A stretch of 64,000 nt of DNA from Amoebophrya sp. A120 (Eukaryota; Protista; Dinoflagellata), in assembly GCA_905178155.1 (NCBI GenBank), contig CAJINV010000016.1:1749102-1813101 (forward strand), in the 5' to 3' direction. The translations under genes were made by a program, and so were the position numbers. Each line of letters starts with the position of its first letter. The first letter of the stretch is position 1. Positions 90 to 21,400 of the stretch are shown in pieces. The notes beneath the pieces are model-generated. The model did not search any database and was not told the DNA's origin. It saw only the letters and a program-made list of their open reading frames with translations.

Positions 90-2235
90 TCTAGAAACGG
101 ATATCAAATGCTACGGAAATTATTTCAATTCTTCGATCTCACCCTACACCAACTGGTGACAACTCTTGTACGTGTACGAGCGTTGTTGAGAAATGGCACG
201 CCCGGTGTGTTTATTGTGGCTTATTTGAAAAGCTCTGCAGTGAAGCGGATGACGGCGATTATGCTCATCTACATCCTCATTTTCTCCAGCTGCATACATT
301 CAAATTGATAAACATGACCTATGTAAAAACCCATTGTTCTGGCCACAAAAAAGGCCGGTTGCCGTGTCTCGAGCGGCTTGCACCAAAATAAGATGAATTT
401 CCGCTAGGATAAGCAACTGCTGCAGTTCCGGAAGGGAATAGTTGGCATTCGATGCTGGTGAGGGAGCCGTCGTGGAGCCTCCAGACGGAGCCGTCGTGCT
501 TGTTGGAGACGTCGCGGCACCTCCACTTGCTGATCCTGGTAAAGGCGACAGTAGCGGTTCGAAGCTACTTTCTTTTGCTGACGTGGAAGGCATCGCCTGA
601 AGATCTTGGTACTCGTGTACCTTCGCCAGGCCGACCTGTATCCAATGCAAAAACCACCTCCCCACCCCATAGTCAAGCTGGGGATGATTTGGCTACGCAA
701 AGAAAGAGCCAGCATCGATCTTTTGGCTGTCGCGCGTGACAAGTTTGGGCGAGCCCAAACGTGTCATCGCGTTTCACTTTTCTAGCTGCATCGCAAATCG
801 ATACCCTGGTGCTGATTCCAGAAGGATGACAAACGTCCAGACAGCATTAGAGAATGCTCCTCATGGGGCTCTACATCATCATCATCATGTAGCGGACACC
901 CGCACCCAGCGCCACAGGTCAAGGATCCCCTCCCCGGGGGGTGGGCGAGGAAGCACTTTCGGCGACCTCATCATACAAAAGCCGAGCGCTACCACGGCAA
1001 GTCGCCCCAACACACATGACAAACATTCGAAGCTTGCGGATTTGCATGACAACAATGAGGTAGGGAGGTACAGGTTTTTCCTCAGCATAATCTGGTAGTG
1101 CGCCTCATCCGACTTCGCTTGGGGCAGGATTTTCAAGCAGCCGGCACTTCGTCTCGAATGAGAAGTGGCTGTGGAGGAGACAGAGGAGGCAGATGTTGTA
1201 GTTGAAGACAGCGAGGACTGTGGCGATGTAGTTGAAGTCATCAAAGCAGGATTTTGATTTGCAATTTCAGCAACAGATTTTTCATCCGCACTGCCATTTT
1301 GTTCACGTTCTTCTTCCCCGTCGGTAGTTACCACGGCTTTTATCTTCGGCGAAGTGTTCGCTCTCTCCACCACGTCGCTTTTGTTCCCCAACATCCCAAG
1401 CTCGCGCGCCAGCTCACACGTTTCCTTGTGCCACCGGTACAGGTTTCCGCGCATCCCACTGCCGCCCGAGTTGGTGCCGTACTGGCAAAAGGCCGTGCCG
1501 ACAAACCCCGCGGAGTGCCACGTGGACCCGGAAAACAGCTCCGCCTTTTCGAACAAAATCGCGGACCGGTTTATTTCATGTTGGTCCGGTTTGATGTTGT
1601 ACTTGTGGTCGTCTCCGAGGTCCTCGCGTTTCATCTTATTTGTGAGCTGGTACAGTAGAGATACGCCGGTGATGCCACCGCCGATGATGACAACCGAAGC
1701 CTCGCGCGGAATCGTCGAGGTGCTTGCAGCAGTCAAGATCTTTGTGCTGTTTGCGGTGGAACTACCCGCGTCTGCCGTCCTGCTTAAAAGTGTAGTTGAC
1801 CACGAGTTCGGACCGGAAGACGAGCCTGTTTGAACGTTGGTCGAAGGCGGAGTAGTATGAGAGTGCACAACTCCCCTTCGCCGTCATTTGCCTGGCATGG
1901 AAAGCAATACAAACACCAACACAGGTGTATGCTGTGCATGACAAGTTCTTCATACGCTGAGTGTAGTACCGACTGTTTAAGCTTCGAAACTTTGTAATGC
2001 AGACAGTGCCATCATCATCATGTAGTGGACACCCGCACGCAGCGCCACAGGTCATGTAGTGGACACCCGCACGCAGTGCCACAAGGCAGCAACTGGATTC
2101 GAGATTTTGCATGACAAATGAGGGGGAGGGGGCGTTGTCCAGTGTCATACGGAGAAATCGGCACGGAACTGGTGATGGAGAACCGACGTGGGTTGAGTAT
2201 GGATTGCTCAGACAGTCGTAGGTATAATATCCCAT
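1..2235 (-). CDS. FAD-dependent oxidoreductase, dimethylglycine/sarcosine dehydrogenase (GcvT-family)-like; spliced, 3' end probably outside the window
   Basis: IPREASVVIIGGGITGVSLLYQL Rossmann motif and FEKAELFSGSTWHSAG motif. Removing introner 639-1089 gives in-frame EAHYQVGLAKVHEY. Start codon uncertain. Confidence 0.7.
639..1089. mobile_element. Introner family F with nested retroelement
   Basis: TAT...ATA ends, DR ACCTG/ATCTG, reverse-complement match to 35533 and 54019. Confidence 0.85.
874..1010 (-). mobile_element. (ATG)n-tailed 5'-truncated retroelement, copy 1
   Basis: (CAT)5 followed by GTAGCGGACACCCGC..., near-identical to 19683-19820, absent from other family F copies. Confidence 0.75.
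1856..2149. mobile_element. Introner family C with nested retroelement
   Basis: TIR TATGAGAGTGCACAAC...GTTGTCCAGTGTCATA, interior matches 24608 copy; DR CGGAG offset by an extra TAG. Confidence 0.85.
2010..2073 (-). mobile_element. (ATG)n-tailed retroelement, copy 2 (very short, internally duplicated)
   Basis: (CAT)4GTAGTGGACACCCGCACGCAG, repeated twice, flanked by CAGTGCCA on both sides. Confidence 0.7.
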
Positions 2236-4169
2236 GTTACCAGGAGGAAGAAAATTTGTCATGCAAACGCCACATCATCTAGTTGCAGCCTATTTCGAGA
2301 AGTACAACAATAAGCATAGCGAAGTAAACTAAAACATAAACTAACAAAAAAGTACATAAAAGTGTATGAAAAGCACAGCTTGTTCCTGGTTTATTTCATT
2401 TTTCGTAACAAGAGAGTGAGGGCGGGGAGCAGAGAGAGCGAAAAGAAAGGGACCTAAAGAAGGAGTGATTTGCGAAAGAGGAGCGGGCAAGTGTTCGTAT
2501 GTATGCATTCTGGTGGTCAGCTGGTAATTGTGAACGTCTTCACTAGCGCCTTAAGCACCGGCCTAAACCTGCGCACCGTTTGCCTACGGTACACAGATCG
2601 ATCATGATCTGCGGCTCCAGCCTTTTGTAACTTGCTCGTGCGGAAGATGAAGAAGAAGAATGGGCGCGGCAGCAACGCTGATAGCTCGCAGCTACCACTA
2701 TCTCTCGGTAATTTCTCTCATGAAGAAACAGGACGACGAAATGAAGAAGAACACACATACAAGAATACTTTCATCTAGCATCGCAACTGCTTATTTTGTA
2801 TCAGCAAGTGCTAGAAGCATGCAAGGGAAAGACTTATACCATATGACACCTATTTCCACAGGGAGAATACCCATGACAAGTGCGAGCTCGTCTCCAGTCC
2901 AAACTGCACTTCGTAGGAGAACAACCCGGCAAAAAAACATGTGATGCGAAAAGCGCCAAGGCCAAGCTCGTCACGTTCCTAATGCTCATGCAAGAAGACA
3001 AAGTTTATTTTTCATCGTAGCAAGGTCTGAGACTGCGACACCTGAGCGGGGCGTATGCAGCAGCGGGCGCGCAAGGTAGTTCGTCGGCGGCGATCGCTCC
3101 GCTGTTGGACCGCTGCAGCTACTCAAGAACATGTTCGAATTTCGATGACCCGGATCAAATGTGACAACGTGGCCACTAGTCACACTGCCACTCGTGCGAC
3201 CCCGTGACGAGCATCTCCCTTGTAGGAGCCGCTGCATTTATTTGGCGTTATTCGTGAAGATCATGTCCAAGTGCGCAGCTGGTCCTGCTCTCCGTCTACC
3301 TGGTGGTGCTGGTCGCTTGTGTCAGTGGTCTACGACTGGGAGAAATGCTCGTCGACTTCCTTTCGCCAAACAGAGCTAAAAGGAAGCTATCTATGGCCTC
3401 TTTCTGACATTGAAATCGTGGGCGTCTTTGCAGTGATGGCATTTGTTCCGCGGGCGGGCCCAATCAATCTGGTTGCAACGTCACTCGCGAAGTTGCCATG
3501 TTCGTTGCTGGTAGAGATGCTAACTATATAAACGATCGACGCGCCACAGAAAATAAAGCTGACTATGTTCCGCAATTACACTTGGAACCTGGAACACAAA
3601 CTGACAAAGCAGCTAAGATACGCCAAAGAGCGAAGACAAACAACACGCACTGTTGACCTGCCTCATACAGAGCCGATCATTCTTGACATTGCAGAAAAAG
3701 AAGACTGATAAATAACTTCTGCATCGGGTACTACTCTTCAAGTGGCTTTGCGCTCGTCGCCTCTCTTGCTCGCTCTTGCTTTTCATCTGCACAACCACCA
3801 CCATCAGCACGAGCTTCATGCGTGCGCAGATGAAGGAGTAACACGAGCTTATGTACTACATACACCACCTCCAGCACCACACGAAAGAAAAGGAAGCGCC
3901 CTGTAAACAGGGTCTCCCTCGAAAATGCGTCGCACATCTCAAGATTTGCGCTGCATCGGCACCACGAGCAGCTGCGCAATATATAAAAAAGCACCAGGTA
4001 AATTGAGAACACGCCAGAATCTTTGTCGTTTCGCGCACGGGCGTGCACCAGATCCGAGGACGCAGGTCCTTCGCCAAGCGTTTTTTGTTCAAATGCTTCA
4101 AGAGTGGTTCATAGTCCTCGACCTCGTTATTTGTGTTTACAACTTCAGGACGTTTCTCCACAAGAACAG

Positions 4170-4630
4170 CACAGCTGTACGTGCGTGCTTGGTGCACCAC
4201 CCTCGTACTGCTGATTTCCGTAAATGTGGCCCCGCGCTGCTGATTTCCAAAAATGCTGTAGATCGCTGTCGTTCTCCTTCTTTTTTATTTTTTAGACAAA
4301 CAAGCTCTTTAAGTAATAAAATGCCAATAGTTCTTAACAATAACAGTAGTTGCCGCACGCGGATTGATATCAGACAGCTCAAAAAAGTCAGAGCGCTTTG
4401 TAGCGGGCGTCCCTTCCACCACCAGGACGGCACAACTGTACGTGCGTGCTTGGTGCACCCTCGTATTGCTGCTTTCCGTAAATGTGGGCTGGCGCTGCTG
4501 ATTTCAAACAATGTCGGTCGTTCTCGTTTTTTCAAAAAGCTCTTTAGATAATCAAATGCCAACAAAAATCAGTACCAGTAGTTGTGATCAAACCGCGAAA
4601 AAAGGTCGGAGCGCTTTGCAGCGAACGTCC
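4170..4630. repeat. Diverged tandem duplication, unit about 265 bp
   Basis: CTGTACGTGCGTGCTTGGTGCACC at about 4175 and about 4436, with continuing similarity. Confidence 0.75.
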
Positions 4631-5537
4631 CTGATGCTTTTTTCACCAACTACGTACTCAATGAACGGAGAGAGTAGATACATATGATACGAGGCCCTAC
4701 TTCCAGGTACAAAATACTTTAAAATTTAAGCTTCCATGCTATACTTATTTTTATTACATTCTTGGGATACAAAAAAACGCGGAGCAAAAAAATAAAAAAA
4801 GATTTACATGCCACAATTGAAAGATACAACAGAACAGATGCAAAAGGGCTTTATAGTGTTGAGTCTTCATTTTTCTGATATCTCATGGGGGCATGGACAT
4901 CTCGACGCTTCTTTAGACTCCCTTCGGGGTTAGGACAAAAAAGATGATTTGTTTTTTTAAAATTAGCTGATGCTTTCGAGCTCAAGCATGATCCGATTAC
5001 GATCTCCATCTCGACATAAAGTTTTACTTTACGCCGTCTTCAGAACTTGCGTTTAGTGCCACGAGTGCTAGTACTCGTACTTCTTGTGGCTGTATAAGTT
5101 AAAATGAAAACGCAATGGATTGACTTTGATACTTGTTCTCACGACCGTGGCGTGGCCGGAGTTGTTGTCGTAGGGTTCTTGCATTCACAAACAGTAAACA
5201 AGCTTTGTCTTTTGGTGCGACGGTCGAAAAATTATAGAAAGATTCTGGTTCCGTTCCTTCCACGTATTTTCTACATTGCAAAATGAAGATCCTAGCCGAA
5301 ATGTGAAATTTTGCACTGCAAGTAAGTGAGCGAAAACTGAGAGGCTGTTTTTTTGAGAAAACCTTGCGACATGATGCAGTGAGTCGTTGAAAATTAACAC
5401 GATAAACGCGAGCGTTGGTTCTCCTGGCCTGGATGAAGTAGTGATGCGGGCTCCTGCTCAATCGTGGCTCTTGTCCGAGTTGGTAGATCCAAACGTGGTC
5501 CAATCCATGTCCCACACGTCCTTGTTCTTGTCCACCT

Positions 5538-5740
5538 GTGTGTTATGGTTGTAAGATGGAGAGAACTCGGGTGTTGGTCGAGTCGAAGTTCTATTCATTT
5601 GATCCGTTGCTCGAAGCAAAACCATCCAAGGAAGCGTGACAGTTTGGTGGAAGTCCAAGCGAAATAACAGAACTGCAAGACAAGCGCTTTCTATTGGTGA
5701 GTTATTTTCCTTGGCCCCCAGTCTTTGTTGTTTTGATTGA
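5538..5740. repeat. Dispersed duplication of about 200 bp, copy 1 (partner 7685-7882)
   Basis: TGTGTTATGGTTGTAAGATG...TTCCTTGGCCCCCAGTCTTTGTTGTTTTGA shared. Confidence 0.85.
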
Positions 5741-7315
5741 TCACATTCGCGATCTGCAATCACAATCCCGCAAACAAACCCGCCAAGCTGGTCATCTGAG
5801 TGGTCATCTATACAACAATCATCTCACATATATTGTTGTCTTGGTCTTCATTCCATTTTTTCCAAACACGACCACAAAAGGATCCGCGTCACGGACTTTA
5901 TCAATATGGCACCAGCATGAAAAACATATCATAAAACTCAATAAGTTGCAAATCAACAAGGCACACAGTCTAACCTGCGAAGGAACCGGCTTCGGCGCAC
6001 GATCTTCACCAGCAGGAATCAGTCCCGATCCTCCTTCGGCAAGAGCAGGGTGAAGTGGTACTAGAATTGTTCGTTCGCCGTCTTGAACTTTCTCGTATTC
6101 CTGTAATTAAGTTGGCCGAATCTACTGAACTACGGAATGCAAATTTATGTATTTGTAACCACGTCGTCTACAAAGCCGTAGATGATTGTGGTTTATTCGA
6201 GTACGTGACAAGTACTTAAACAAGATTGACGAAGTCAACTAAAACGCTTCATGGGATTGGGGTCCGAATCCGATAAAAAGGTAGATTGCATAGGCGTTTC
6301 AACAAAGGAATGTTATATTTCTCACCACTTTTGCAGTCGTGTCGGCTGACGCACTGACTGCGGTCCGATCAGCGTCCCCGGGACCTCTGGAGCTGGTACC
6401 GCTGTCATCCTCGTCGACGCCGGTCGACGCACCCTGTCGTGCACGATAAGTATTATAAATGAAGGTCTCATACCATGGCGCCGGGCGATATTTGTAGTAA
6501 AACAAAAGCGCCCTCCTCGTGTCAGTTTTTTTCGTTCCCCCATGCGCCTTGTTCACTGTCTTCTTTTGAAGAAGACACACTACGCTAAAAAGAAAGTGTC
6601 CGGCTTCTAAGCGTTACACTTAGACTTAGTACACTTTCTTCTACAATGAATGGCTGGTCATCGTCATATGAGTAATCTATCGAACAACAGTCATCTCATA
6701 TATTTATAGCGCCCGGGAAAAAATCATGCGATCCATAGGCGCAGCTAGGTGGGAAGCGCCGCCGCGAATATTCAGATCGAAGAAAAGCGCTACGAAAATT
6801 GTAAAAGTGCATACTTCATCATCACTTCTTCTACCTGAACAGCCCCCGACCGCTGCCCAACATCTTGCGACTGTGCTGCATCAACGTCACGCACCGGAAG
6901 CCGAGCCGGAGGCTGGCCGACCGGCCGTTCAAAAGCCAGGTCGAAGTACTCGGTGTGCGGGCCGGCGGCCGCAGACGAAGCAGGAACCGGAAGCTGTGTA
7001 TTTTGTTAAGACGGGAACACGATTGTCAAAACACGACGAGGAAGCAGCCTACCATACATAGTCGTAGAATTAGAGTCTAGATCTGCAATAGGCTCGACGG
7101 AATGAATATTTAGAATAGGCTGTTCGTCCAGGAGCAGGACAATGCAACCACGAGAGAACGTTGATCCGAGAGAGGTGGTATCTAGGCTAATCGAGCCTCT
7201 AAGCGGATGCTGCACCTCCGTCTCGTGATTCGAAACGATGGATCGGCAGCGTTTGCTTTATTGAGGTACGAAAACGAATACGATGGGAAATAGGTAGAGG
7301 TAGGGCCCAGATTGA

Positions 7316-7510
7316 TACCCTGGGGCCCGGTACCCTGGGACCCGGTACCCTGGGACCCGGCACCCTGGGACCCGGTACCCTGGGACCCGGTACCCTGGAA
7401 CCCTGGAACCCGGCACCCTGGGACCCGGTACCCTGGGACCCGGTACCCTGGGACCCGGTACCCTGGGACCCGGCACCCTGGGACCCGGTACCCTGGGACC
7501 AGGTACCCGG
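7316..7510. repeat. 15-bp minisatellite (TACCCTGGGACCCGG), about 13 units
   Basis: Directly visible; gives periodic ORFs in several frames. Confidence 0.95.
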
Positions 7511-7684
7511 ATTTGAGCAGTTCTGCAGCTGCTTCGTCGTTACGAGAGATGATGGCCATCGTGGAAACTCGCGTCACCAATCCATGCGGCCACTCGCGAT
7601 CTGGAAGCCAGACCAATGCGCGCACTCAGATGAATGCGGGCCCAATGGGCACCTGCGCCCAGGTACCCGGGTCCCCCGAATGAA

Positions 7685-7882
7685 TGTGTTATGGTTGTAA
7701 GATGAAGAGAACTCGGGTGTTGGTCGAGTCGCAGTTCTCTTCATTTGATCCGATGGTCGAAGCAAGACCATCCAAGCGTGACAGTTTGGTGGAAGTCCAA
7801 GCGAAATAACAGAACCGCAAGACAAGCGTTTGCTATTTGTGATTTTATTTTCCTTGGCCCCCAGTCTTTGTTGTTTTGACTG
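7685..7882. repeat. Dispersed duplication of about 200 bp, copy 2
   Basis: Matches 5538-5740. Confidence 0.85.
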
Positions 7883-8941
7883 GTCGAACCAAAATCAAGC
7901 ATCCGGAATCTTCTCGCGCCCCTGCGCGCGCGCTGTCGAGTTGTCTATTACTCTGGAGCGCGCCTGCCTTGCCGTCTCTCTTTCATTCTCCAAACATCAT
8001 CGCCACCATTCTGCGAGCGCGCGGCTGCTCTACCCTTCCTGGTTTCTTTCCTGTCCGGACTCCTAGGGCAGGCCAACAAGGGGTCGCCATTTAGGGCGAC
8101 CCAAATCTTGTAAACTTAAAGCTGGCCGCATCATGAACTCGAGTGGTCATGTAGGAAGCAACAGAGCCACTGTAGATGAAGTCCAACTGAAACAAGGGAA
8201 GAAGGTGGACAAGAAACTACACACACATAGAAGATTTTCGCGCCGGAGCGGCCGCTACAGTATAAAGCTTCGCCCAATTTTTCCGTAGGCTTTTCTCTTT
8301 ACGGCCGACGCCAATGATGCACATCTGATGGCGCAAGTGAGGCCTGACAAGACGGCAATAAGTAGCCAGCTAGTGCGTCCTTTGGCACGCTGCTGCGCGC
8401 CCCTCCCTCCTCCGGCAAGGCAAACTGCGAACCCAGTTTCCAGCAGACATCCAACCTATACCATGGGGGCGCGGCTGCTTCCTTCAAGCGCGGACGCCTT
8501 CAATGCGAGGCTAGGTTTTTGTGGACTTGGGTGGGTGTGGCTCAGATTCCGACCAGAGGACCCCGGCTCCCTGCCAGAATCGACGTCGTTCGGGGGGGCG
8601 GCAAAACGCGCACCGTAGCTAGCACTGACTCTGCCTGAGTTCCGGGCGGTCCAGCAAGCAACAGAGCCGCGGCACTTAGCCCTGTTTTTTGGGTCTGGCG
8701 GAGGGCGCCACGCGACCCCACGCCTGCACTTCGTGCAGGAAGGGCTCTGGGGCTAGGGCTCGACCAGCAGACCCACTCTTGATTGGAGACGGATCACCCA
8801 GCGCAAGAGCGAGGAAGAACAATCAATGTCAATAATCAAGGAAAAAAAATTTTTTAAATTGCGTCGCTGCTTCAACTCAGTCACGTGATACCTCTTTCCC
8901 ACGCTCGTCCCCGACGGATTCGCCTTCGTATTGAAACGTGT

Positions 8942-9155
8942 CCCAATCGACGTCGTACTCGTCGGCGATGGCCTGTTCCAAAAAAGTGAAAAATTAGTAT
9001 GGCGCAGGCTTACGACACATCTCAAACAGGTAAAAAGAGGAAAGTGCCGGCTCGTGTACTTACACTCTTTCACCTTCTGCTTATGCGTTAGAAAATAGCC
9101 CAATGCGGGCGCGGGCGGTAGTCTACTTAATCGAGTCACTACTCGGATGCTGCAC
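8942..9155. repeat. Dispersed duplication of about 210 bp (partner 10822-11027)
   Basis: CCCAATCGAyGTCGTACTCG...CTGTTCCAAAAAAGTGAAAAATTAGTATGGCGC shared. Confidence 0.85.
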
Positions 9156-9276
9156 CAACACCATCGCCTCACAATATGAGACGATCGGCAAAGTTCTTTG
9201 TTATGTTCTTCTAAGATAGAAAGCAAAGAAAAGATCATGGAGCTTCGGTGGGATGGACAACCAGCGTACTGGAGAA

Positions 9277-10371
9277 CTAAAGTTTGTCGGTGTGGAGTTT
9301 AATTTTTTCTGCTTCTCTGGTGTCCGTCAAGAGGATGCTCATCAATTGTTCCAATTGCAATTTCAGTTGGGTTCCAGTAAAAAATTTCTTGCAGCAAACA
9401 ACTACAATCACGTCTACGTCACATGATGACACCCCCGCAACTACCTTTTCGGCCCGCTGGTAGGCCCGGGTTATGAGAGTGAACAACTCCCCCTCCCCCT
9501 CATTCGTCATGCAAAATGCCAAGTCTACCCGTTGCCTTGCGTCTTGGCACAGTTTACATGACAAGTTTCGGAAGCCGAAACAGAGCTAGAATCGACCGCC
9601 GATTTGTGATGCGAAAGCTGCATATTTGCCGGAGCTTGTGTTGCTGTGGATGCTATCCAAATGGGGGAGAGGGAGAGTTGTGCACTCTCATATGCGCCTG
9701 CGACTGGATTTTCGTTGCAGCTGCGTCTTCTGCTTTGGCCTGCGCCTGCGGTGTGTTGCGTAAATAAGCAATCTTCTCTGGCGTCCGTCAAGAAAATGCT
9801 CATAATTCCAAACAATTTAGCTCGGTTCAGAAAATCATTTGCAACAAACAACTACAATCACGTCTACGTCACATGACGACCCTTCCGCAACTACCTGTGC
9901 TTTTCTTTCCGCCAACTCCTGCCTGGCCTTTTTGGCCCGCATTATGAGAGTGAACAACTCCCTCCCTCATTCGTCATGCAAAATGCCAAGTCTACCCGTT
10001 GCCTTGCGTCTTGGCACTGTTTGCATGACAAGTTTCGGAAGCCGAAACAGCGCTAGAATCGACCGCCAATCTGTGACGCAAAAGCTGCACATTTGCCGGA
10101 GCTTGTGTTGCTGTGGACGCTGTCCAAATGAGGGGGAGGGGGAGTTGTGCACTGTCATACGCACCCTCCTCTGGATTTTCGTAGCTGCGGCAGCTGCTTT
10201 GGCCATGGCCTCCTGCGATGTGTTGCGTAATAAGCAATCTTCTCTGGTGTCCGTCAAGACCATGCTCGTAATTCCAATCGATCCAATTAGGGCTGGGTTC
10301 CAGAAAAAAACTCTTCCAACAAACAAGACAGCGGAAGAGGTGCGCAGCGGGCGCCTGCGCGATGCGGCCAA
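9277..10371 (-). CDS. IQ-motif repeat protein or pseudogene in a tandem duplication of about 465 bp
   Basis: Removing introner 9943-10159 gives AAATKIQRRVRAKKARQEL; the second unit is degenerate. Confidence 0.4.
9472..9692. mobile_element. Introner family C
   Basis: TATGAGAGTGAACAAC...GTTGTGCACTCTCATA; DR not retained. Confidence 0.85.
9943..10159. mobile_element. Introner family C
   Basis: TIRs as above; DR CGCAT/CGCAC. Confidence 0.9.
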
Positions 10372-11850
10372 AGTGGGCGCAATAGCATGCGCGCCCCAGA
10401 CTCATGGCCACAACACCCGGCAGACAGCGTTTCGGGCAGGGTCAATTTTCGACCGCTAGGCTGTCGCGAGCAATATCTATGCAGCCTGGCAATATAACAA
10501 AGCGACAATATAGAGAAATGGGGTTTTTGGTTGGCTTTGGAGCCCGTCGCGGCCAAATGTCATATTGGAGCACTGTGTGTCAACATAGTTATGTTAATGT
10601 AATCTGAAACTGAATTAAATAAGCAATGTTGTTTATGTTAATATTCTTACTTCTTCATCAGCCATGGAGATAAAATCCGGGGCGTTCGTTTTCGCAATAG
10701 CTTCTTTAAAGTCTCTGTCGAGCTGCGTTGCCTCGTCTGCGTCTTTGCTGACGACGACCGCGCCCTCCTGGAAAGGATTTATTGACTATGTTGCGAAAAG
10801 AAAGAAGCATCTATATGATTCGCCCAATCGATGTCGTACTCGCCGGCGATGCCCTGTTCCAAAAAAGTGAAAAATTAGTATGGCGCGCGCTTACGACACA
10901 TTTCAAACAGGTAAAAAGAGGAAAGTGCCGGCTCGTGTACTTAGACACTTTCTGCTTGTGCGTTACAATATGAGTAGTCCAATACGGAGGGTGGTTTAAT
11001 CGAGTCGCTACTCGGATCGCATGCTGCACATAACGCGCGGTAAAATAAAGAGAAGTTCGTGGCCAGGGATGAGAAGGAACAGATAGCGACAGCGAGCGGT
11101 GCCGGTGCCAAAGATCAAGACGAAGTGCTGACGATCATACTGATAAAAAGGATGATGACATCTTCGCAACAAGTAGTTGGTAAAGAAACGAACCTCGCAG
11201 ACCAGAGCAAGGTGCTTCGGGTCCCATTTTCCGGAGTTGCGAGATTCATCATCAATGTTCTGCAGAAAAAGCGCGGTTGCCACGACTTTCTGCACTTCCA
11301 GCGCATCAGCACCACCGATGACCCAACGCACACCCTCGCGGAACGCCTGCAAAAGTGGGTCGTGCTGTGTATCGTCCAAATAGTATCGAGTGCACAACCG
11401 TCGCTATCGTGGAGACCGAAACGCAGCAGCAAGGTTTACGTTTTTACACTCGCATGCCTATAAACAGAGGCCTGTTCTTCGTTTCTTGCAGGGACTGAAC
11501 CACGGACAGGTTTCTCACCATGCTATAATCTGATGACATGAAAACATCTCGTGACACAATTGCAGACGCTTGCAATGCAGATGCCTGACGAGTGTACTTC
11601 TCATGGTTCTTTGGCTTCTCAATGTAGGTAAATGACGGGAGCTCCACCACTCAGCTAGCCCTTTTCCGCGATGCCTGTCCGTGTCCCCCTGCAAGAACAT
11701 TTTGGTATTTGTTAAAAATATCCAATTATTTATGAATGCAGCTCAAGAGGCTTGGTCAAGTGATGTAATAAAAAGTAGTTCTAACACTACCCAAACCCTA
11801 TTTCGTGACCGATGAAACAGCTGTGAAAAGTAAACATTGCTTCTGCAAAT

Positions 11851-12636
11851 CTATGTTCCGAATCTGACCACGCCTGCGACGCCGTTGCATAAACGAGGAG
11901 GGACCTGGACAAGATCTTTCCACTCTCGTTTTCCGCTGGCATCATGTGTCTTCTTGAAAGCACCGGCTCCGAGATGCGTCAGTATGTCACTCATCACCGT
12001 GTCAGTGGAAGGCGCGACCTCCACTTGCTTTTGGAGCCACGCGACGCAGTTTCTGCCGAGCTGCTCTGCAGTGGGAATCACCGCTTGCACCTTGAAGCGA
12101 TAAGTGGGATAGGACGGAAGATAGTTGATCAAAGTGTCCCAGAGCGAATCCGTCTCTGCACAAAAGGCACGGGCATCGGTGACGGGCATGCCGTCATGGT
12201 TTGCGCAGTTGCAGACAATTTTTTTGTCCGCAGTTTCGAGGTAGTAGTTGTCTTCAAGAGCGCCCAGTAAGCCCACAAAAGGTTTGCATTGGTCATTGTC
12301 GTCGATCGATCGCGCACACACACCCTGCCCCGTGAAGGCTTTTTCAGCGACCTCCAGCACTGGGCCAGGATCTAACCAACCGAGCAAGGACCAAAAGTAG
12401 CCTTGTTCCTGTTGCTTCTTCGTAGTGTCGAAACGCTGCTGTGCCTGTTTCGCCTCATTCAAAACTGACGCGAGCTCGCGCTTTTCCTCTTGCTCTTGTT
12501 CGCTTAGTTCGTGGGGACGAAACTCGTTGCAGACAGAATCTTTGCGGTCGTCCAAAAACCTTGCCCATGCTTTTCCAGCTTCCCGGTACATCTTCGTATC
12601 GTGTTGCGTTCGTATCGTGTTGAAAACATGTACCAT
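11851..12636 (-). CDS. Hypothetical protein
   Basis: 261-aa ATG ORF with globular/coiled composition; no family recognised. Confidence 0.5.
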   Translation of the reverse strand: MVHVFNTIRTQHDTKMYREAGKAWARFLDDRKDSVCNEFRPHELSEQEQEEKRELASVLNEAKQAQQRFDTTKKQQEQGYFWSLLGWLDPGPVLEVAEKAFTGQGVCARSIDDNDQCKPFVGLLGALEDNYYLETADKKIVCNCANHDGMPVTDARAFCAETDSLWDTLINYLPSYPTYRFKVQAVIPTAEQLGRNCVAWLQKQVEVAPSTDTVMSDILTHLGAGAFKKTHDASGKREWKDLVQVPPRLCNGVAGVVRFGT

Positions 12637-13297
12637 CCATCCCCAGGACCTGGACCCGCGGACGCGGAGAGGACGAGGGCTTCGAAATCATATTAATTAA
12701 ATGCCACTTATTCATTTATCATGTATTCGCGGGCCGCGGCCTTCGTCATCATTACCATCGAGCAAGCGCGCTACGTGTTGTGCCACTAGTACTAGTGCCT
12801 GAAAAAAAATTACCCCGCCCCCGCCAGCCGGGGGGCCTAGCCATATTTTACGAAGATGATTTTCTTTGGCTTTTGGTTTCGGTTGTCGCGAATGCAACAC
12901 GTGAATTGTAGCCGAGGCCTTTACTCTAAAGCAACTGAGCGTAATCGAGAAAGAGAAACGCGCGCTCTGCTGGGGCGTGTCTCCGATGGCATCAAGGACG
13001 ATGTCTACAAAGAAGTTGTGATGAAGCAAAAGCAATCAAATGCAAAAGCAATCAAATCAACATAGTGAAGAGCCTCCGCATGATCAACCGCATTTATTAA
13101 CATTTCAAAGCGTTCCATGCTGCTTGGCACTACTGTCCTATTCTTGTCCTCGTTTTCTCAGCAAGTGCAAGAGCAAGTAGTGTACAATAAAAAAATAAGT
13201 CGCACTCTTGCAGGAGCTGATAATCATACATGATAGGCTTTCCTTCGCAATCCGTTGCTGCACTGTGTCCGGGATGATGGTAAACTAAGAAAGACTT

Positions 13298-14700
13298 TTA
13301 TGTCATAGGAGGTTCCATTTGGATTTTGGCTGTGTCCGCATTGATCCGCTGCAGAAATGCATCAGCATCCGGTACTTCCTCGTGGAAGTCGTGGTCCGGT
13401 CCACCGACCTCAGGCAAAGAATGTTGTTCGCCGGATGTCGCTTCCCGTTTCAGCAGGTCATCTTCTTGCCCCGTCGACGCGCTGCTGGGCGCAACTGCGC
13501 GTATCAAATGGAAAGGACCACTACAGCAACACCACCTCACGAGGAAGATTAAGTACGTTGTCGTGTTCTGTTGATAAAACGCAATGCTGACACGCACTGC
13601 GACGTTTTGCGACAGAAAGGATATGACTGTGATCATAAAACGACATTGAATTACTATTAATTTGCTCATCTGTCTCATCTTCAATATCCACATATCCACC
13701 CCGAAAACGTCGAAATACAGTACACCATGAGATTTCGAAAGCAACTACAATCAATGCCGGCATATTAAGAGTTCACATTTACTTAGTTTCCTCGGTGCGA
13801 CATGTAGTGGAAAAATCAGAGGAGCGAGTCCGTCTTTCTCCTTTGATAAAACCAGCGTTCCCGTCGTTGCTCGCCGGGCGGAAGCCGAGGAAACCCCCGG
13901 CTTCCGTAATTTTGAGAAGCCCCTCCTGGCGACGGTCTGCCGTGGTGTCGACCTGCGAATCCCCTCCCTGGTCAATCTGCTGGTGCTGAATCGTCTTCAC
14001 CGCGGCCACGCCGGCCGTTAGCGAGGACGCCGCGCCGGCGGCGAGGAACGTCGTGACGCCGCTTCGGATATCAAATGCGAATATGTCTGGGTCTGGAAAG
14101 TTATAGACTTCTCACGCAGCTTTTCCATGACCCATAAGGTCTGGAATGCGGCACTTAGCATGACAGACTCTGCGAGGCCGACGCCGAGGTCTCTTCCATG
14201 CCTATCCTGCATGAGAAACTCCTTTCCAACTTGGTGAAAAGTGTACAGCTTTTGGCACTCATGCCACACAGATTTTTGCATGCTTCAGATTTACCATGAC
14301 AAGTTGCAATCTTCCAGACCCAGACACTTTTACAATTCATACTTGATGGTCGACATGGTCGGTCTACTCGATCTGGACGAGCAGGCTGTGCAGGTGCGAG
14401 ACTTTTCGGCTCGACGTGCTGTCTGGAATGGATCTCTTGTTCTGACGAAAAAGCTACGGTTCTTGTGGCAGCTCGAATCTTCGTGTTTGTCGCAGCGAAC
14501 GTGCGTAAGTAAACACTTCACTTGTTTTCTTCCGCGTTGGCGTCAGAATCGCGAGTGTGGTTGGTCGCCAAAGTTGAGTTTGTTGCACACCTCTTCGCGC
14601 GTGATTTTTCAAATTGTTGCGAACTTCGTGTTGGTACGAGTGCTCCTGCTGAGTGATTTTGTTGTTCGATTTTTTGTTGTTGTTGTGAAAGTCCATAAAA
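13298..14700 (-). CDS. Hypothetical spliced protein (ends uncertain)
   Basis: Protein-like minus-strand segments flanking introner 14069-14341. Confidence 0.3.
14069..14341. mobile_element. Introner family A
   Basis: TATCAAATGCGAATATGTCTGGGTCTGGAA...TTCCAGACCCAGACACTTTTACAATTCATA; DR degenerate. Confidence 0.9.
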
Positions 14701-15816
14701 CGAGCTACCGTCCGTAGCTGAGAATGATATGGTGAGAAGAGGGTCAAAAGTCAAAGTTTTTCGTTTTTCGTTTACGTTTTTAAAGTTCTTCGTTGTTGAA
14801 AGTAGGGGATAGAAAGATCGGGTCACTTGAAATTGTTCGAAAGAAGAAAGACAAAGTCTGAGGGGGTCCTCGTCGTCGTCGTCCTGTGCAGAGTTTTCAT
14901 AATCGCGGTAGCATGATAGCCAAGAATACTTGAATGGATGAAGATGAAGAATACAGACGAGGAAATACGAGGTCGCAAAGCGACAAGACCAGTTAAAAGT
15001 CCAGCGAGGGCTGACATCAAAGTTGTAGAGGAGCCGATAGTTGTATCGTAGAGGTATTTTGACCTTCGCACGACCTCGAGAAACGATAACGAACCGACGG
15101 CGTCTTACTACGCAGCTGCACGACCAGTAATGTAGTTTGAACGACAAAATATTTTCGTACTACGAAGAACCGAATTTTTACCTACGCCGTCTTTCTCAAG
15201 CAGCAGAACCGAAACCGAACATACTAACTATTCGCTGAAATATGAGACGAACGAAGAGTGCGGGAGACCGATATATAATTCTTTGTCTTCTTCTCTGCTT
15301 TGGCGTCGACCGAGAAGGACCAGGACGAGGTTCTTGTTATGAGCAACACAGAGAAGGCGAATACATCTTCCGGTTCCGACAAAGAACACCGAGGGACATA
15401 ACATTGCGCTTCAAACCGGTGAGAGATTCATTTAGACGATCAATAAACCGAAATGAAAAAAAGGTCAAGGCAGCTGTACAAAAAATATAGACGAAAGTGC
15501 TCTGCCAAGTTCTTGGCATGTTTCCAATAAAGAACCATTCCACCGCGCCGCGGCTTCTATTTTGCAAAGGCAGTTCTTCTTCTTCCGCGTCGATCCAGTT
15601 CTGCGTGAATCAACTTTTTTATACAGCAAATTAGATTGATTCGGATTTTTTTTGATTGCTATTGCAGTTTCATCTGTATGCTTCAGGTCCTCGCGGCAAA
15701 GGGCAAGCCGCGGCCCCGGAAGCGTCGAATGTTCAAGTTCACGAACAGCCGTCCCTCAGGCGAACGTTCAGGTACGGGCTCTTGTCATACTCCTCAGCCG
15801 TCAAATCGTCCAAGGG

Positions 15817-16060
15817 TGTGCAATGCAAAAATGTCTGGCTCTGGAGATCTGGTAATTTGCCAGACTGAGCAGGTCAACCTCGTGCTGCAAACGATGGACT
15901 ACACATCAAGTCCAACTGCAGCAGCCGAGCTGCATCTTCTCGAATTTTGAGATGAATGCGTCGTCGTGCGCAGGGGCAGGCGCACGACGACGACCACCAA
16001 GTGCGTTCTTGCTGTAAGAGAGTCAGAGACACACGCTCTGTCCAGACCCAGACTACATAT
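15817..16060. mobile_element. Decayed introner family A
   Basis: TGCAAAAATGTCTGGCTCTGGA...TCCAGACCCAGAC; termini and DR lost. Confidence 0.6.
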
Positions 16061-16436
16061 TGGTGCTTTTCTCATACACGACTTGGCGTCGCAGCTCGGA
16101 GCTGGCTGCAGCTCCATCGGGTAATGTCTTGCCTTCTTTGATTCCTGGGGCGCCCCAAGTGCGCGCTGAATGGTATCGAATGTGAAAACAACGATGAAGG
16201 AGCTGCACGATGTTGACGAACTACTCTCGACGTCGTGATGGAGCAGTCACAGACACACAGACAGGAGCAGTACATCACAGACAGGAGCAGGTAGACTCGC
16301 CCTAATTGAAAAATAGGTCGTGCTTCATGTCTTCTCTGACGACTTCCGTGACATACTCGTGTTTCAAAGACGGATAAAAGAGGAGACGTCATCAACATGC
16401 GCGTCCTTCACGCGGCGGGAGAGGCTACTGTGGTCT

Positions 16437-17153
16437 TCACATGGGATAGATCAATACTGCTTGCCAATTAGAGCTATTGTGGTTGAACAAAGCCCCGTCA
16501 GTAGAGGGAGACGCTTCTTCTCCGCCCTTTGTAGGAAAAGTCTTGGTCTCAACACGGTTTGCAGATGCGGCCGGGGTAGTTGTCCTCTTATTTTCCAAGA
16601 CAAAGGTAAACACGGCAACGTCCTCCTCCTCGCTGTCGCCGTATTTGAAATGCTGAAACATGCGGATTTGGCAGCAACACGCGGAAGAGAAGCCTGTGCC
16701 CGAACCTAAAAACCGCACGTTCTCCAACGCGAGAATTTTCTGCGGGGCGAGCCAGGTCAAGAACGTCTTGCACATTTCCTCGCGGCTGGCACCCCCCGTC
16801 GTTGCGGAGTTGCCCATGTACTGTCCTGTCGGCTTGATCATCAAACAATCCGGGCTGACAAAATCGCCGTAGTTTTCCGGACAGATGGACAAGTGCGCTT
16901 CCAGCTCGCGAAAATACCGCCGGACGCTGTTGACCTCTGAGAGGGAAGGCGAGGGAGGTTGCTCTCGTGGTCCCGGGGTAGCTGCACTGGTTTCATCGGA
17001 ACGAATTCTGGGCAGCCTTTCATCTGGACCCTCCTGGTGGAGGAGCAATTTGCAGTTCTTTGTATCTGAGCCTGTGCCCAAAAAACCCCAATATTGGTCT
17101 GATGCAAGACGTGCAGTGGTATCATCTTCTGCACCGCCTGGGTCCTCTTCCAT
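16437..17153 (-). CDS. NTF2/SnoaL-like protein resembling DUF3804
   Basis: CLMIKPTG...FQHFKYGDSEEEDVAVFTFVLE...WQAV pattern; family recalled from memory, not searched. Confidence 0.5.
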   Translation of the reverse strand: MEEDPGGAEDDTTARLASDQYWGFLGTGSDTKNCKLLLHQEGPDERLPRIRSDETSAATPGPREQPPSPSLSEVNSVRRYFRELEAHLSICPENYGDFVSPDCLMIKPTGQYMGNSATTGGASREEMCKTFLTWLAPQKILALENVRFLGSGTGFSSACCCQIRMFQHFKYGDSEEEDVAVFTFVLENKRTTTPAASANRVETKTFPTKGGEEASPSTDGALFNHNSSNWQAVLIYPM

Positions 17154-18476
17154 CTTGATTTTGGGAGCGGCAGTGTGGACGTTGGCTTGCTGGTAAGGAA
17201 TAGGAAAACAAAGCACTTACTACTTTTAGAACTGGATAGGACTGATGGAAAGCAGTAGTACTGAATAAAGCCGGCACTACTTGAAGAAGTGCAAGCTATT
17301 TGATAAAGACCTCGCGCTTGTTCTGTTCTCCTGGTATTTCCACCGAAGAGACATTTTTACAAGTGGGCTGCGGCAGTTGTAAGTCGATTCAACATGAGCA
17401 CGCCGGGGAACAACACCGTCCACCACCAGAAACACTACTTTATTTCTAATTATGTGATCTCCTAGTACACAAATCGAAAGCAAACGAAAACGCCGGTGGG
17501 CCGCGCCCCGACCGAATCATTGTAGCAGCCCGCTTCCCGGCGACAGAACAGAGCGTCCTTACGACCGGACTCGGCAGCCAGCCAGGAAGAATTGACGGCG
17601 GTACAACTGCGTTGCTTTCCACCTGCTTTTGCTTGTATTTTTTCACTGCTCACCAGTTGATCATCAATTGCCTTTATTAGTTTCACCCGCACCGCAGAAG
17701 TCGTCAACCTTCATTTCGCTTTTTGATTTACAATATCGTCTTGTCGCTGAGCCTTCCACAAGGAAAAGCGTCAGCTCAACGTGGTGATCCAGTGACTTTT
17801 CCTAAAACTTGGTTTTGCACCAAAAATAGGACTAGCTAAACTGTTCATACGACACGGGAGACTGAAGATACGTCTAAAGAATAAAGGTGAGCTTCTTCAT
17901 CGGAATGATTGATCTGTCTAAAGTGCTTAATATTCTCACGACCTCATCAAGGTTTTATTTTGTTTGATGGGGGAAACAAAAGCTGAGCCATGCCAAAGCT
18001 CATCGTGTTCACATATTGTTCACACAGCTACTTGCTTCAATAGCTCTTTAGAAATTCATACTGTACACTGTTTTACGTCTTTATCGTTTCACTTCTTGCT
18101 AGTTTTGTGGAATTCTCGAAGTCAATAACAATAATGTAATGGAACTAGGAAAACAGGTCCAGTAAAGCTGCAGCATTCTTGTACAGAAACCACTGCTACA
18201 CTAAGCTGTTTCGTCGTTCCAAAGCGTCGTAGTTCGTCTCAATTGTTGACTACGGCATTTGCATTATGAAGAGGAGAGTAGTACTACTAGTAGATCCTGT
18301 CTACTTAATTTTCGGGGCACAAGCGGTTGCTCTTGCTCGTCGTCCCTCTATCGCTACTTCAGTTCCAGCTCGACCAGGTTACAAATCTCATCAGCAGGTG
18401 AAGTAATCGTAGTTCTACCGTAAAAACCGTAGTACGTACGCGTACCTGATCAAATTCATCAAATTAATAGAACAGC

Positions 18477-21400
18477 TTAAAACAGAACCACGACGCCAAA
18501 CAGCAGTGAAAATAGAACTCCCATCATTTTCACCGGGCCTAACATCAGCGAGGGAGACGCAGCTGTTCCCATTCTGCCCACCGCCGAGCTGGTCGTGCTG
18601 GTTGACAGTAGCTGCGCTCCGGAAGTAGATGAACCATTTTCGTTGTAATTCTGAGCTGCGCCGGCCATGGAGGCGCGGACGTAATCGTTGCTGGCAGGAC
18701 TTCTAGACGAGCCGGCGCTTGTACTGCTTGCCGTCGCAGCACTAGAAGAAGATTGATACACAACCGGTACAGTCGGGCTCATTTGCGGCGTGGTTGTGAG
18801 TTGCAGTGTGGCTGTAGTAGGAGAGCCTGCTGCGCCTGTTTTAGGATTACTACCGCCGCCACTCGCTTCCGTCAAACAGCTGTTACAGCTCAATTGAAAA
18901 GCCGGCGCCGTCTATGCATTGGAAACATGTTAAGTATTTGGGTCCTCTGGAAAGGTGCAAGTACATAGCTTGTGAGTGTGATAGCGATTCTCTTTCTCTC
19001 TGTCAGTCACATAAAAAAAAATAAGTAATCTGTCACTGCATGCATGCACGAGTAGAAAAAGGTGTCCTTTCGTGGCCACACTGAGTAGAGAGGATTTCTC
19101 ATCCTACAGAGTGGGCATTGCAAAACTCTCACCATAAAAGCTGTGAAGATGCTACGATCCGCATTCCAGAGTAGCACCTTCTGCCTGGCCTTTCTGGGCG
19201 GTCATGCAAAACCTGCATGACAAACATCTGTAAATTTTCCAGCCCCAAAAGCTACATCTTTGCACTCGCATACCGTCTCCGGTTGCGCGATCTTTTCTCG
19301 CAGCTGCTGCTCCTGCACAAAATCGGCCGCGGCAATCTCGTAATCGATCTTGATCCGGCCAGTGGACGAACTGCTCCCCGCAAGCAAACGAAGCACTAAT
19401 CGATTTTTCTCCAACACGGCCACCTCTTGCAAATTCACCTGCTGTTGCTCCACATCAAGCGTCCCCGCCAAGGCCTCCAGGACGCTCGCGCCGAAAATTT
19501 CCTGCGCCTGCGCATCGCTTTCCATATGGCGCTCTCAACTGTTACATTCTCAACTGCTATATGAATTTGTGATGCAAGAATGGAAAAAGTGAAAGGGGTG
19601 ACCTTGCACGTCTCGCATGACAGATTTGCAACAGATTCTCAGCCTGTTTGGCTCTTTTAGAATTTGTCATGCGAAGCAGCTTCATCATCATCATCATGTA
19701 GTGGACACCCGCTCCCGGCGCCACAGGTCAAGGATCCCCTCCCCGGGGGGTGGGCGAGGAAGCACTTTCGGCGACCTCATCATACAAAAGCCGAGCACTA
19801 CCACGGCAAGTCGCCCCAAGAAAAGTGCCAACCAGTCGGGAGCTACCCACCACACCTGATCGGTACAGCCCGGCCAGCAAGCCGAGCGCGACAGCCCTAC
19901 ATACAGAATGATCCAGGACCCGACCCATTTTACGCCCTACGTTTTTGTTCTCACGGAAGAGACGACGTACCCCTTTGGGTGCAGGGGCGAGACTCTCCCC
20001 TAAGCCGCAGCCCCGCCCAGACAGGGGAGGCTGGACCGTTTGCGCCTTACCTTCGGCACGGACGAAAAAGGCAAGCGAGCGGGCCACAGATGTCAAACCA
20101 TAGACCAGTTGTTTGGCACTGCTGACTGGCAACCCACCTGGGGCGCAGCGACAACTTAAAGGCTTAATTTTCGATTCTGCTTGATCGCGTCGATTCTGCT
20201 TGTAATTTTGCATGACAAACCATGTAACAGTTCAGGATGTAACATTTGAGAACGCCATATTCCAACAGCCCGACATTGGACACGGTAGTTTCCATGGTCC
20301 CCTGGATGCCCGTCTGCGCGCACTGACAGTTCGCCAGCATCTCCTGTTTCTTTTCCTCTTTGAACTGCCGCTTTTCCTCGTCCGACAGGGCTGCAAACGC
20401 GGCTTTTTCCGCCTCTTTCTCCGCCTTTTTCGCCTCGTGTTGTTGCTTTTTTGCCTTCATCTTCTCGAACTTTTCCAACTCCTCCGGAGTCAGTTCGCCG
20501 CTGTTCGCCTTCCGCTCCATATCGGTGAAAAATTTCTCGCGCTCCGCCTCCATCTCGGCCTTTTTCGCTTCCATCTCCGCCTTTTTCGCTTCCATCCCTT
20601 GCTTCTTCTCCTTCATGCGGTCAAATTTCGCCTGTTCCTCGGCCGTCAGCGCGCCGGCGTTGGCTTTTTCCTCCCATTCGGCAAACAGGGCCGCCTTGTC
20701 GGGCTGAGAAGAGCATAGTCGAGATGGAGTTGGATACGTTTACGTGAAGATCATGGGAAAAAACTAACTTTTTTCAACATCTTCCGAGTAAGATTTTTAT
20801 TTAGACAGGAGCAGAAGAAAGTTGCGCTAAACTACACACCAGGAGCAGAAGAAAGTTCCGAGGTGGGCGCACAACCACACACCCAGAGACGCTACGATGT
20901 ATCTACTTTATCCAACGGCGAAAAGTGACCCACGCCCGGCCGCATAGTCGTCAAGGGCTGACAACCCAGGATGGGCCGAAGGTAGTGGCGATATCTATGA
21001 TACATATGATGGTGGCGCAGAATGATGATGGACAGGCGAGAGTTTGACACGGGGCGCAGTTATCCTCTATGCGGGTGGTGGGGCCACTACCACGGGGTGA
21101 GAAGCTATCCTGGAGGCGCGCTCAAGTCGCGAAGCAGCGTAGCAGTAGTGTGCACTTCTAAGCTCCTCGACGAAAAAATAAAAAGTAAAATGTCGGCGTC
21201 ACAACAAGTTCGTAAGAAATCGTTTTCAACTAGCGTAAGACAGGCTCACACAGCACTGCAGCGTAGGAAAAGACCAAGAAGTGGACAACAGCGAAAAAGT
21301 TCAAAAAAGTGAAAATAAAAAAAACAAAACCTTCCTTTTCGACTATATACAGCAAGACTTTAACTTGAAGCTTTCTCTTCACAAGGCCAGCTTTTTACAG

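Follow-up and report, generated by a model that had tools for sequence, protein, structure and literature searches.

Three tailed inserts lie within introners

The window, by which we mean the whole 64-kb stretch of Amoebophrya sp. A120 DNA analysed here, contains three short inserts that share a trinucleotide tail. The tail pattern is matched exactly at 880, 2013 and 19689, each time on the plus strand as read and with a chance expectation of 0, and BLAST with the longest insert (copy 3) returned no additional copy in the window. All three inserts run on the minus strand. Copy 1 (874..1010) consists of an (ATG)5 tail at 874-888 and 122 nt of the element's 3' end; its target duplication, ACAT at 873-876 and 1014-1017, is accompanied by 3 extra bases at the 5' junction. 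Copy 3 (19683 to about 20170) has an (ATG)5 tail at 19683-19697 and about 473 nt of non-coding 3' end, followed at the 5' junction by a 13-nt host duplication with a period of 19. The extents given for these two copies in the initial annotation of the window stand; its reading of copy 2 (2010..2073) as a single 64-bp truncation does not. Copy 2 is composed of an (ATG)4 tail, 33 nt of the 3' end and a second partial 3' end (34-bp period), and its target duplication, CAGTGCCA at 2004-2011 and 2074-2081, overlaps microhomology with the element. A second tailed family, at 46416-46512, may likewise target introners under a different rule.

The hosts are different TIR elements. The first (639..1089) has TAT...ATA ends and a 5-bp duplication, ACCTG/ATCTG; the second (1856..2149) has TATGA...TCATA ends and is located where a minus-strand gene of the DAO family begins; the third (19525..20259) has TATGG...CCATA ends and a TTCCA duplication. 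Excising host 1 or host 3 in silico together with its 5-bp duplication reopens the minus-strand frame, while excision of host 2, which sits at the start of the DAO-family ORF, gave no open frame in a 150-nt test. The hosts match published A120 introner elements in their TAT start, A-run and 3-5 nt direct repeats (Farhat 2021; Gozashti 2025). TIRs and a fixed duplication, as expected of an introner or MITE, are present in the hosts and absent from the insert, and sister introners of the window hosts lack the insert altogether. Introners had been estimated to cover about a fifth of the window; a conservative mask, which misses some copies, puts them at 15%, or about 27% of the non-coding tiles. 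Because of this share, three inserts of three in introners are weak evidence on their own (P about 0.02).

The same sites were hit repeatedly

A metagenome scan with the tail pattern returned nine loci, eight of which are genuine copies, all from one other assembly; the ninth (L005), 24 nt of GC-rich bacterial DNA that match by chance and have neither tail nor body, is excluded from all counts. The viral contigs scanned with the pattern gave 0 matches. The eight extra copies again show the same tail polarity, variably truncated 5' ends, a restriction to introners and sense orientation. Ten of the 11 copies lie inside A120-type TIR introners. The remaining one (L007) adjoins half an introner, and its tail abuts exon sequence, which requires a later deletion or a mis-assembly.

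Five insertion sites in four introner families account for the 11 copies. Three sites were each hit repeatedly at one and the same nucleotide: site F four times (lengths of 122, 170, at least 429 and 97 nt), site C three times (33, 30 and 472 nt) and site G twice (473 and 560 nt). The fourth family has two sites, with copies of 29 and about 2263 nt. No exon flanks are common to window copies and metagenome loci. Since the five sites were reused with differing 5' truncations and with either 4-9 bp duplications or small deletions, the insertions are independent events. Every copy ends in a 3' tail of (ATG)4-6 with the same polarity, although the scan pattern itself demanded two repeats; 5' truncation varies from 29 to about 2263 nt, with microhomology at several junctions. 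Target duplications of 4-9 bp were found in five of the ten copies having a 5' junction and deletions in three; of the others, copy 3 is complex and L007 one-sided. The uniform tail polarity, the variable 5' truncation and the target duplications of varying length or small deletions are as expected of the target-primed non-LTR retrotransposition proposed in the initial annotation.

An upstream motif at near-fixed spacing

Every junction has the tail in register with CA, CAT or CAA of the host. Beyond this, in all five site classes the cut sits 25-28 nt from a motif, TTTGTCATGC, that is common to the introner families, an arrangement of upstream motif and near-fixed nick distance characteristic of R2/RLE-type elements. 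Near copy 1 the motif lies at 1044..1052 on the minus strand (GCATGACAA on the plus strand, TTGTCATGC on the element strand), 27 nt from the site CA; near copy 2 it lies at 2109..2117 (minus strand), again 27 nt from the site; and near copy 3 at 20210..20218 (minus strand), 25 nt from the reconstructed site. The empty sister of host 3 at 37450-37700 likewise has a spacing of 25 nt. With both flanks intact the distances are 27, 27, 25, 25 and 27-28 nt, and with the right flank alone 25 and 27 nt; for L001, L002, L003 and L006 the spacing was taken from the position in the family rather than from intact flanks. Empty sister introners also give spacings of 28, 30 and 33 nt.

The 11 copies that the rule describes also served to derive it, so the probability that any 4-nt window would hold all five site classes, about 2e-6 (at most 1.8e-6), is a post hoc value. 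As a null, introners free of the element contain 4416 CA sites, of which 108 are followed by the motif after 25-27 nt; for 25-28 nt, 4.1% of CA sites in introners qualify. Across all DNA examined, 127 of 146 rule-matching sites fall inside introners, compared with only 25% of CA and 35% of CAT. One junction in run X1, found after the rule was fixed, resembles site C. Among the ten loose ends listed of 31, one is a clear introner site and two, from run X9, show no recognisable introner over 30 letters; the others comprise an 11-nt tandem repeat (also in run X3), three blurred consensuses and three stretches of element sequence. Two other rules were rejected: constant spacing from the introner end (about 66-76 nt in most copies, about 150 in L008) and constant spacing from the motif when measured on the tail side. 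Near-fixed spacing from a motif common to the introner families is the likely basis of targeting.

Copies lie in host sense, biased to the donor side

Relative to the host gene, all 11 copies are in sense orientation, with host strand assigned by Pfam on the same gene for five copies, by Pfam on neighbours for three and by a codon model for three; the model agrees with 64 of 66 coding tiles outside its training window. Free rule sites point both ways (68 vs 78), giving the sense bias a P of 2e-4 when counted per copy and 0.02 per site class. The copies are biased towards sense orientation and the donor side, whether through targeting coupled to transcription or through purging of insertions that face the other way. 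Purging is a serious contender, falling somewhat short of an even chance: the motif rule would be orientation-blind, and antisense insertions, landing near the acceptor end, would break splicing and be lost. This retains targeting by the motif and differs solely in the cause of polarity. A sense insertion beside the subterminal motif is one at the donor end, which couples orientation to intron end, and the five site classes yield only the weaker of the two P values. However, none of the 11 copies is antisense, the internal site of L008 is sense too, and the donor side tolerates an insert of 2.3 kb.

Structure of the element

The longest copy, L009 (2.27 kb), begins exactly at its 5' junction with the final 12 nt of the spliced leader of dinoflagellates (leader sequence from PMC12014239), a 12-mer that occurs once in 167 kb over both strands. 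As leader relics in dinoflagellates mark retroposed RNA (PMC12014239), this one copy points to an RNA intermediate. Contigs from three runs join across its empty site. Summed contig depth in run X1, which is not a copy number, exceeds 10,000 at the tail and has dropped to about 340 by 470 nt, which fits 5' truncation; X1 contig cover is missing over most of L009:1472-2331, a gap that carries no weight as evidence. L009 may itself be a chimera: an X1 contig follows it over 270 of 620 letters and departs at L009:2387.

The full-length RT/endonuclease master copy that had been anticipated did not emerge. In the longest copy found, frames for RT and endonuclease are both lacking; as far as seen, then, the family is non-autonomous, and the copies yielded no autonomous partner (no Pfam hit, no codon signal). 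A 147-aa minus frame of copy 3 was rejected as a gene: changes spread as 14/15/13 over codon positions, non-synonymous exceed synonymous changes (33 vs 12), stops interrupt it in three of five copies, and beyond its own gene call the only homolog is an Ig-repeat protein matched by chance. The fold of the 3' end is not unusual (z 0.24 and -1.15), and no Rfam family was matched, including over the whole 2.27-kb copy. A hairpin at about L009:2760-2803 has a z of -4.3. A Penelope-like origin, considered earlier, found no support: instead of pseudo-LTRs the ends show mutual resemblances of only 12-18 nt, neither strand has a CTGANGA core as in a hammerhead ribozyme, a GIY-YIG/RT frame is lacking and Rfam gave no match. 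A SINE with a tRNA-, 5S- or 7SL-derived head was likewise rejected, for want of an Rfam match and because the 5' start is spliced leader. Raw RNA of run X22 gave zero reads on the element; host introners match this run at only 85-99%, so it is probably another strain and hence uninformative on expression.

We think it rather unlikely that only the 3' 0.6-1.3 kb is the targeted mobile unit, as the 3' UTR of an unseen autonomous LINE, and that the leader-capped 2.27-kb copy arose just once, by fusion with a host transcript. Consistent with such a short unit, a single copy carries the leader, contigs of runs X1 and X3 depart from L009 at 2387 and 3290 and continue with other letters, and published A120 TIR families have LINE peptide hits with alignments of about 7.1 kb. 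Yet X1 contigs match L009 blockwise over 1.3 kb with frameshifting indels, an internally deleted derivative is present, and L009 sits at a rule site, flanked by a clean 6-bp duplication.

Discussion

These data make it probable that the family is a non-autonomous non-LTR retroelement whose borrowed RT and endonuclease are aimed by a motif common to introner families. An element of LINE type with a loose CA/CAT preference and no real targeting, of which selection leaves only the introner copies, is improbable. Introners are enriched in such sites (35% of CAT, 49% of GCAT), insertions into the roughly 43% of the window that is coding-like would be purged, and some junctions in the RNA runs are not recognisably introner; but non-coding DNA outside introners makes up 41% of the window and holds zero copies, separate events reuse identical nucleotides, and five unrelated sites keep to the 25-28 nt spacing. 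Least credible of all is that site reuse reflects copying of already loaded introners (composite transposons, as Tx1C) with later deletions, for although introners are mobile and element-bearing hosts within one family are alike, same-site copies differ in length, tail count, duplication or deletion and microhomology, every loss is on the 5' side, and the element is present in four unrelated host families.

The closest precedents for a targeted non-LTR element of this kind appear to be R2 for spacing, TRE5/TRE3 for position and orientation, and Tx1L for a target inside a DNA transposon. In R2Bm (RLE clade), RUM-RASIN recognition involves an upstream motif, spanning -34 to -22, whose spacing from the nick is almost constant (PMC10499050); the motif described here spans about -36 to -26. 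R2, however, is autonomous, targets 28S rDNA and tolerates one base, whereas our copies spread over 25-28 nt and end in an (ATG)n tail. The Dictyostelium TRE5/TRE3 elements (L1 clade), residents of a compact genome, insert in a position- and orientation-specific manner some way from a promoter element that is occupied by protein (PMC5911963). Insertion here is similarly specific, and a tethering geometry would fit; the TRE anchor is TFIIIB/TFIIIC at tRNA genes, while here it would be a transposon motif with a putative tether. Tx1L/Tx2L of Xenopus laevis (Tx1 clade, APE) occupy a specific place inside the apparent DNA transposon Tx1D (PMC1950540). Our copies share with them non-LTR-type insertion within a DNA transposon, here TIR elements. 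Unlike Tx1L, which uses one sequence in one host family, they show five unlike cut sites in four families with only the upstream motif in common, so there is no single specific target sequence of the Tx1-clade kind; moreover, the hosts are introns, and no ORF was found in the element. The leader end at L009 recalls further systems. NeSL-1 obtains its 5' end by trans-splicing, and CRE/SLACS and dinoflagellate retrogenes also link retrotransposition to spliced-leader RNA; NeSL-1 and CRE/SLACS insert into leader genes, whereas this element carries the leader end and inserts into introners.

We propose the following route. Transcription of a sense copy, probably as read-through of the host gene, would come first, and the transcript may be capped through spliced-leader trans-splicing, of which the L009 junction preserves the leader end. 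An autonomous LINE would provide RT and endonuclease and bind the element's 3' end. The complex may then dock at TTTGTCATGC, directly or via a protein bound there, and nick the opposite strand after the CA that lies 25-28 nt further in. The freed CA/CAT end could pair with the AUG tail, in the register seen at the junctions, and prime reverse transcription. Synthesis mostly ends early, and joining through microhomology leaves the 4-9 bp duplications or small deletions observed. Finally, the insert would be removed by splicing along with the introner, so that introners may serve as a spliced-out safe haven, as first suggested for the window.

A more elaborate version, a hyperparasite built on the host's intron machinery, is rather unlikely. 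The tether would be a TTTGTCATGC-binding protein of all these introner families, either a transposase or a splicing factor; the direction of transcription would be sensed, leading to sense landing on the donor side; and read-through would express the element, spliced-leader trans-splicing would release it, and splicing of the introner would remove it from the mRNA.

The published literature searched gives no description of this element, and the passages and tables consulted in the A120 introner papers describe no nested site-specific retroelement (Farhat 2021; Gozashti 2025); the latter reports that secondary insertions were removed by filtering. The element's end motif is absent from the supplements examined, while files 13 and 14 or the deposited introner sequences may hold it. 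Known targets of site-specific retroelements are rDNA, snRNA, tRNA and leader genes, microsatellites and single transposon families (PMC4640811). The literature searched contained no precedent for one motif that marks the target in many unrelated intron-forming transposons and combines a fixed spacing with host-sense polarity.

The targeting described here may account for the LINE hits in published introner families of this lineage, and an integrase that reads a short motif and cuts at a measured distance would be of interest beside R2-based insertion tools. For the biology of Amoebophrya, the result points to TTTGTCATGC as a candidate functional protein-binding site and thereby offers a handle on how non-canonical introners are recognised for movement or splicing. 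If the hyperparasite reading were true, the insertions would footprint the very factor that handles Amoebophrya's non-canonical introns.

The element and its host introners

The tail pattern matches the window three times, at 880, 2013 and 19689, with none expected by chance, bearing out the initial annotation's three tailed copies with one common end; BLAST found no further copy in the window. The inserts (copy 1, 874-1010; copy 2, 2010-2073; copy 3, 19683-about 20170) lie in introners at 639-1089, 1856-2149 and 19525-20259, each a TIR element with a 5-bp duplication, and these hosts begin with TAT and an A-run, matching a published description of Amoebophrya A120 introners (PMC7789003); these features are also what points to the taxon. 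Removal of host 1 or host 3 restores a minus-strand reading frame; in the same test, no open frame followed removal of host 2. The sister introners compared all lack the insert, as had been claimed. Copy 2 is tailed as proposed, but instead of one 64-bp truncation it consists of two 3' ends in tandem. In a comparison of 19683-20102 with RNA run X1, a joint 20102 -> 19683 suggests tandem element copies.

Scanning metagenome contigs with the tail pattern yielded nine loci. The element is present at eight, which belong to a single assembly, with 93-100% identity; the ninth, L005, was a chance match and was left out of the counts. No exon flanks are common to the window and these eight loci. Seven of the eight copies lie inside introners, extending the confinement first seen in the window, and the exception, L007, adjoins half an introner: its 5' end is joined to the right half of an introner, while a calpain exon adjoins the tail. 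Element and half introner form a 565-nt intron in the calpain gene (L007, around 500-1000), whose exons stay in frame provided that the tail's last ATG is shared, so the tail may at present act as the intron's 3' end. In L003, the right part of the host is duplicated beside the 5' junction, giving a tandem pair of ends that both bear the motif.

At the junctions, a host CA or CAT (CAA in L009) keeps register with the tail, and the same tail end recurs with differing lengths in window and metagenome copies, so that the suggested tail polarity and variable 5' truncation hold in both. Target duplications (ACAT, CAGTGCCA, TCGCTTCA, ACAGATTCA, ATGCAA) overlap microhomology with the element in several cases, copy 3 has a short duplication of host sequence at its junction, and L001, L006 and L003 show target deletions. 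Junctions of this kind are what target-primed reverse transcription usually leaves.

Orientation to host genes

The element is sense to its host gene in 11/11 copies, so the orientation noted in the window extends to the metagenome. Host strand was taken from a Pfam match within the host gene itself for copies 1 and 2, L007, L008 and L009 (the last under the curated cut-off), from Pfam on neighbouring genes for copy 3, L004 and L006, and from a codon model, which agrees in 64/66 tiles outside its training window, for L001, L002 and L003. By orientation, free sites fitting the spacing rule described below divide 68 versus 78 and family sites 24 versus 24; the sense bias has P = 2e-4 when copies are counted and 0.02 when site classes are. 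Sense insertion beside a subterminal motif falls on the donor side of the intron, and this coincidence lends weight to a reading compatible with targeting, namely that selection created the polarity by purging acceptor-side insertions, to which we give somewhat less than an even chance. The whole window is one co-oriented gene block, with minus-strand Pfam matches to a DAO-family oxidoreductase (888-1883), DnaJ (23841-25846), a TSNAXIP1-like protein (32889-33530) and a Kelch repeat (61337-61960).

The long copy

Extension in the 5' direction had been proposed as a way to a full-length RT/endonuclease master copy, and none was found in the DNA examined. The longest copy (L009:1440-3717, 2.27 kb, flanked by a 6-bp duplication) has no Pfam or Rfam match, no long terminal repeats and no codon signal judged against positive controls; its 3' open frame shows no constraint, and we found no homologs of it. 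The copy is therefore non-autonomous. In three runs, contigs span the site in its empty state. The copy opens with TTTTGGCTCAAG, the 3'-terminal stretch of the spliced leader of dinoflagellates (PMC12014239), and this sequence occurs once in 167 kb; this leader-capped end is known from one copy. Contigs of X1 leave the L009 sequence at 2387 and those of run X3 at 3290, so other 5' parts exist. Given these departures and a single long copy, L009 might be a chimera, which would be compatible with targeting, but we think this rather doubtful.

At L009:3290, contigs of runs X3 and X9 connect an 11-nt tandem repeat with the last 413 nt of the element. A contig of X3 also continues beyond the tail into other sequence; these joins possibly represent a further master copy or a transcript of the host. 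A 683-nt skip in X1 (L009:2726-3410) marks an internally deleted derivative. The two ends of L009 carry look-alike motifs of 12-18 nt (1484-1561 and 3657-3702), and a strong hairpin lies at 2760-2803. As a lead, Dataset S2 of a published survey lists two A120 TIR families that are short (305 and 234 bp) yet have LINE peptide matches (I-Jockey, RTE-BovB) and alignment ends near 7.1 kb (PMC12130899), as a nested LINE of ~6.9 kb would give.

Motif spacing and site choice

Host introners contain the motif TTTGTCATGC/GCATGACAAA many times, and 123/145 strict matches fall within the introner mask; it is likely a shared protein-binding site. Its spacing inside introners is ~30 bp across otherwise unrelated families, and it is rare elsewhere (motif-rich introners: 38560-38820, 42500-42810, 54020-54300). 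On the element's strand, the motif reads TTGTCATGC and lies upstream of the nick, with 25-28 nt from its end to the nick. Copies in which both flanks are intact give 27, 27, 25, 25 and 27-28 nt; the right flank alone gives 25 and 27 nt; and, for the remaining four copies, the distance is taken from family position. Among CA sites in element-free introners, 108/4416 fit 25-27 nt, and the chance of five site classes falling in any one 4-nt window is at most 1.8e-6. In L008 it is an internal motif that lies 25 nt from the nick, which makes the motif, and not the introner end, the ruler. A run X1 junction found after the rule was set resembles site C, the insertion site of copy 2; the other nine of ten loose-end rows (10 of 31 examined) were element sequence (3), blurred (3), tandem repeat (1) or not callable as introner from 30 letters (2).

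In all DNA examined, 127/146 rule-fitting sites lie inside introners, so the spacing rule alone accounts for the confinement, whereas the density of CA or CAT (25% and 35% of sites inside introners) does not; untargeted insertion followed by selection is very improbable. Introner-like sequence makes up 20% of all DNA examined and ~27% of the window's non-coding tiles, giving P ~7e-7 for 11/11 copies with introners if the events are independent. Site F of copy 1 is also used by L001, L002 and L006, site C by L003 and L007, and site G of copy 3 by L004, while a fourth introner family has two sites, one each for L008 and L009. Because each reuse differs in length and junction, the copies are independent as events, and it is most unlikely that the repeated sites arose by copying of already loaded introners.

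A second, unrelated tailed insert (46416-46512, ~97 bp, in which 22 nt are duplicated internally) carries (GTA)6 on the plus strand, so that its tail reads (TAC)n on that of the gene. It directly follows CTGTCATGC within a large-family introner, is missing from the sister introner at 61910-62175, does not obey the 25-28 nt rule and has no other copy in all DNA examined. The window also holds a tandem duplication of ~460-540 bp that includes an introner (9312-10326, 80% identity), further duplications (4158-4632; 5539-5742/7685-7885; 8942-9148/10823-11017) and a coding-type tandem repeat of 13 copies of a 15-bp unit (7316-7508).

Mechanism and relation to known elements

The mechanism that we propose starts from what was observed directly (the tail and the truncation, the duplications, the spacing, the polarity and the leader end) and is, as a whole, quite probable. 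Element RNA would be freed by read-through transcription and trans-splicing, the latter a process that NeSL-1 uses for its 5' end. A LINE protein supplied in trans would dock on the motif, either directly, as in R2, or via a bound factor, as in TRE5, nick after CA and prime on the AUG tail, and the insert would leave the mRNA together with the introner.

In published accounts, R2 is alike in motif-to-nick spacing (PMC10499050), TRE5/TRE3 in position and orientation of insertion (PMC5911963) and Tx1L in choosing a DNA transposon as target (PMC1950540), likenesses of behaviour alone, as assignment to any of these clades would take a protein; unlike Tx1, the element does not keep to a single target. 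Published lists of what site-specific LINEs target already include transposons (PMC4640811), and safe havens are an established idea (PMC6719617), so the kind of element is known; in the literature searched, we found no published description of motif-measured targeting across introner families or of its polarity. The element is a real site-directed retroelement in introners and, as far as we searched, a previously unnoted one.
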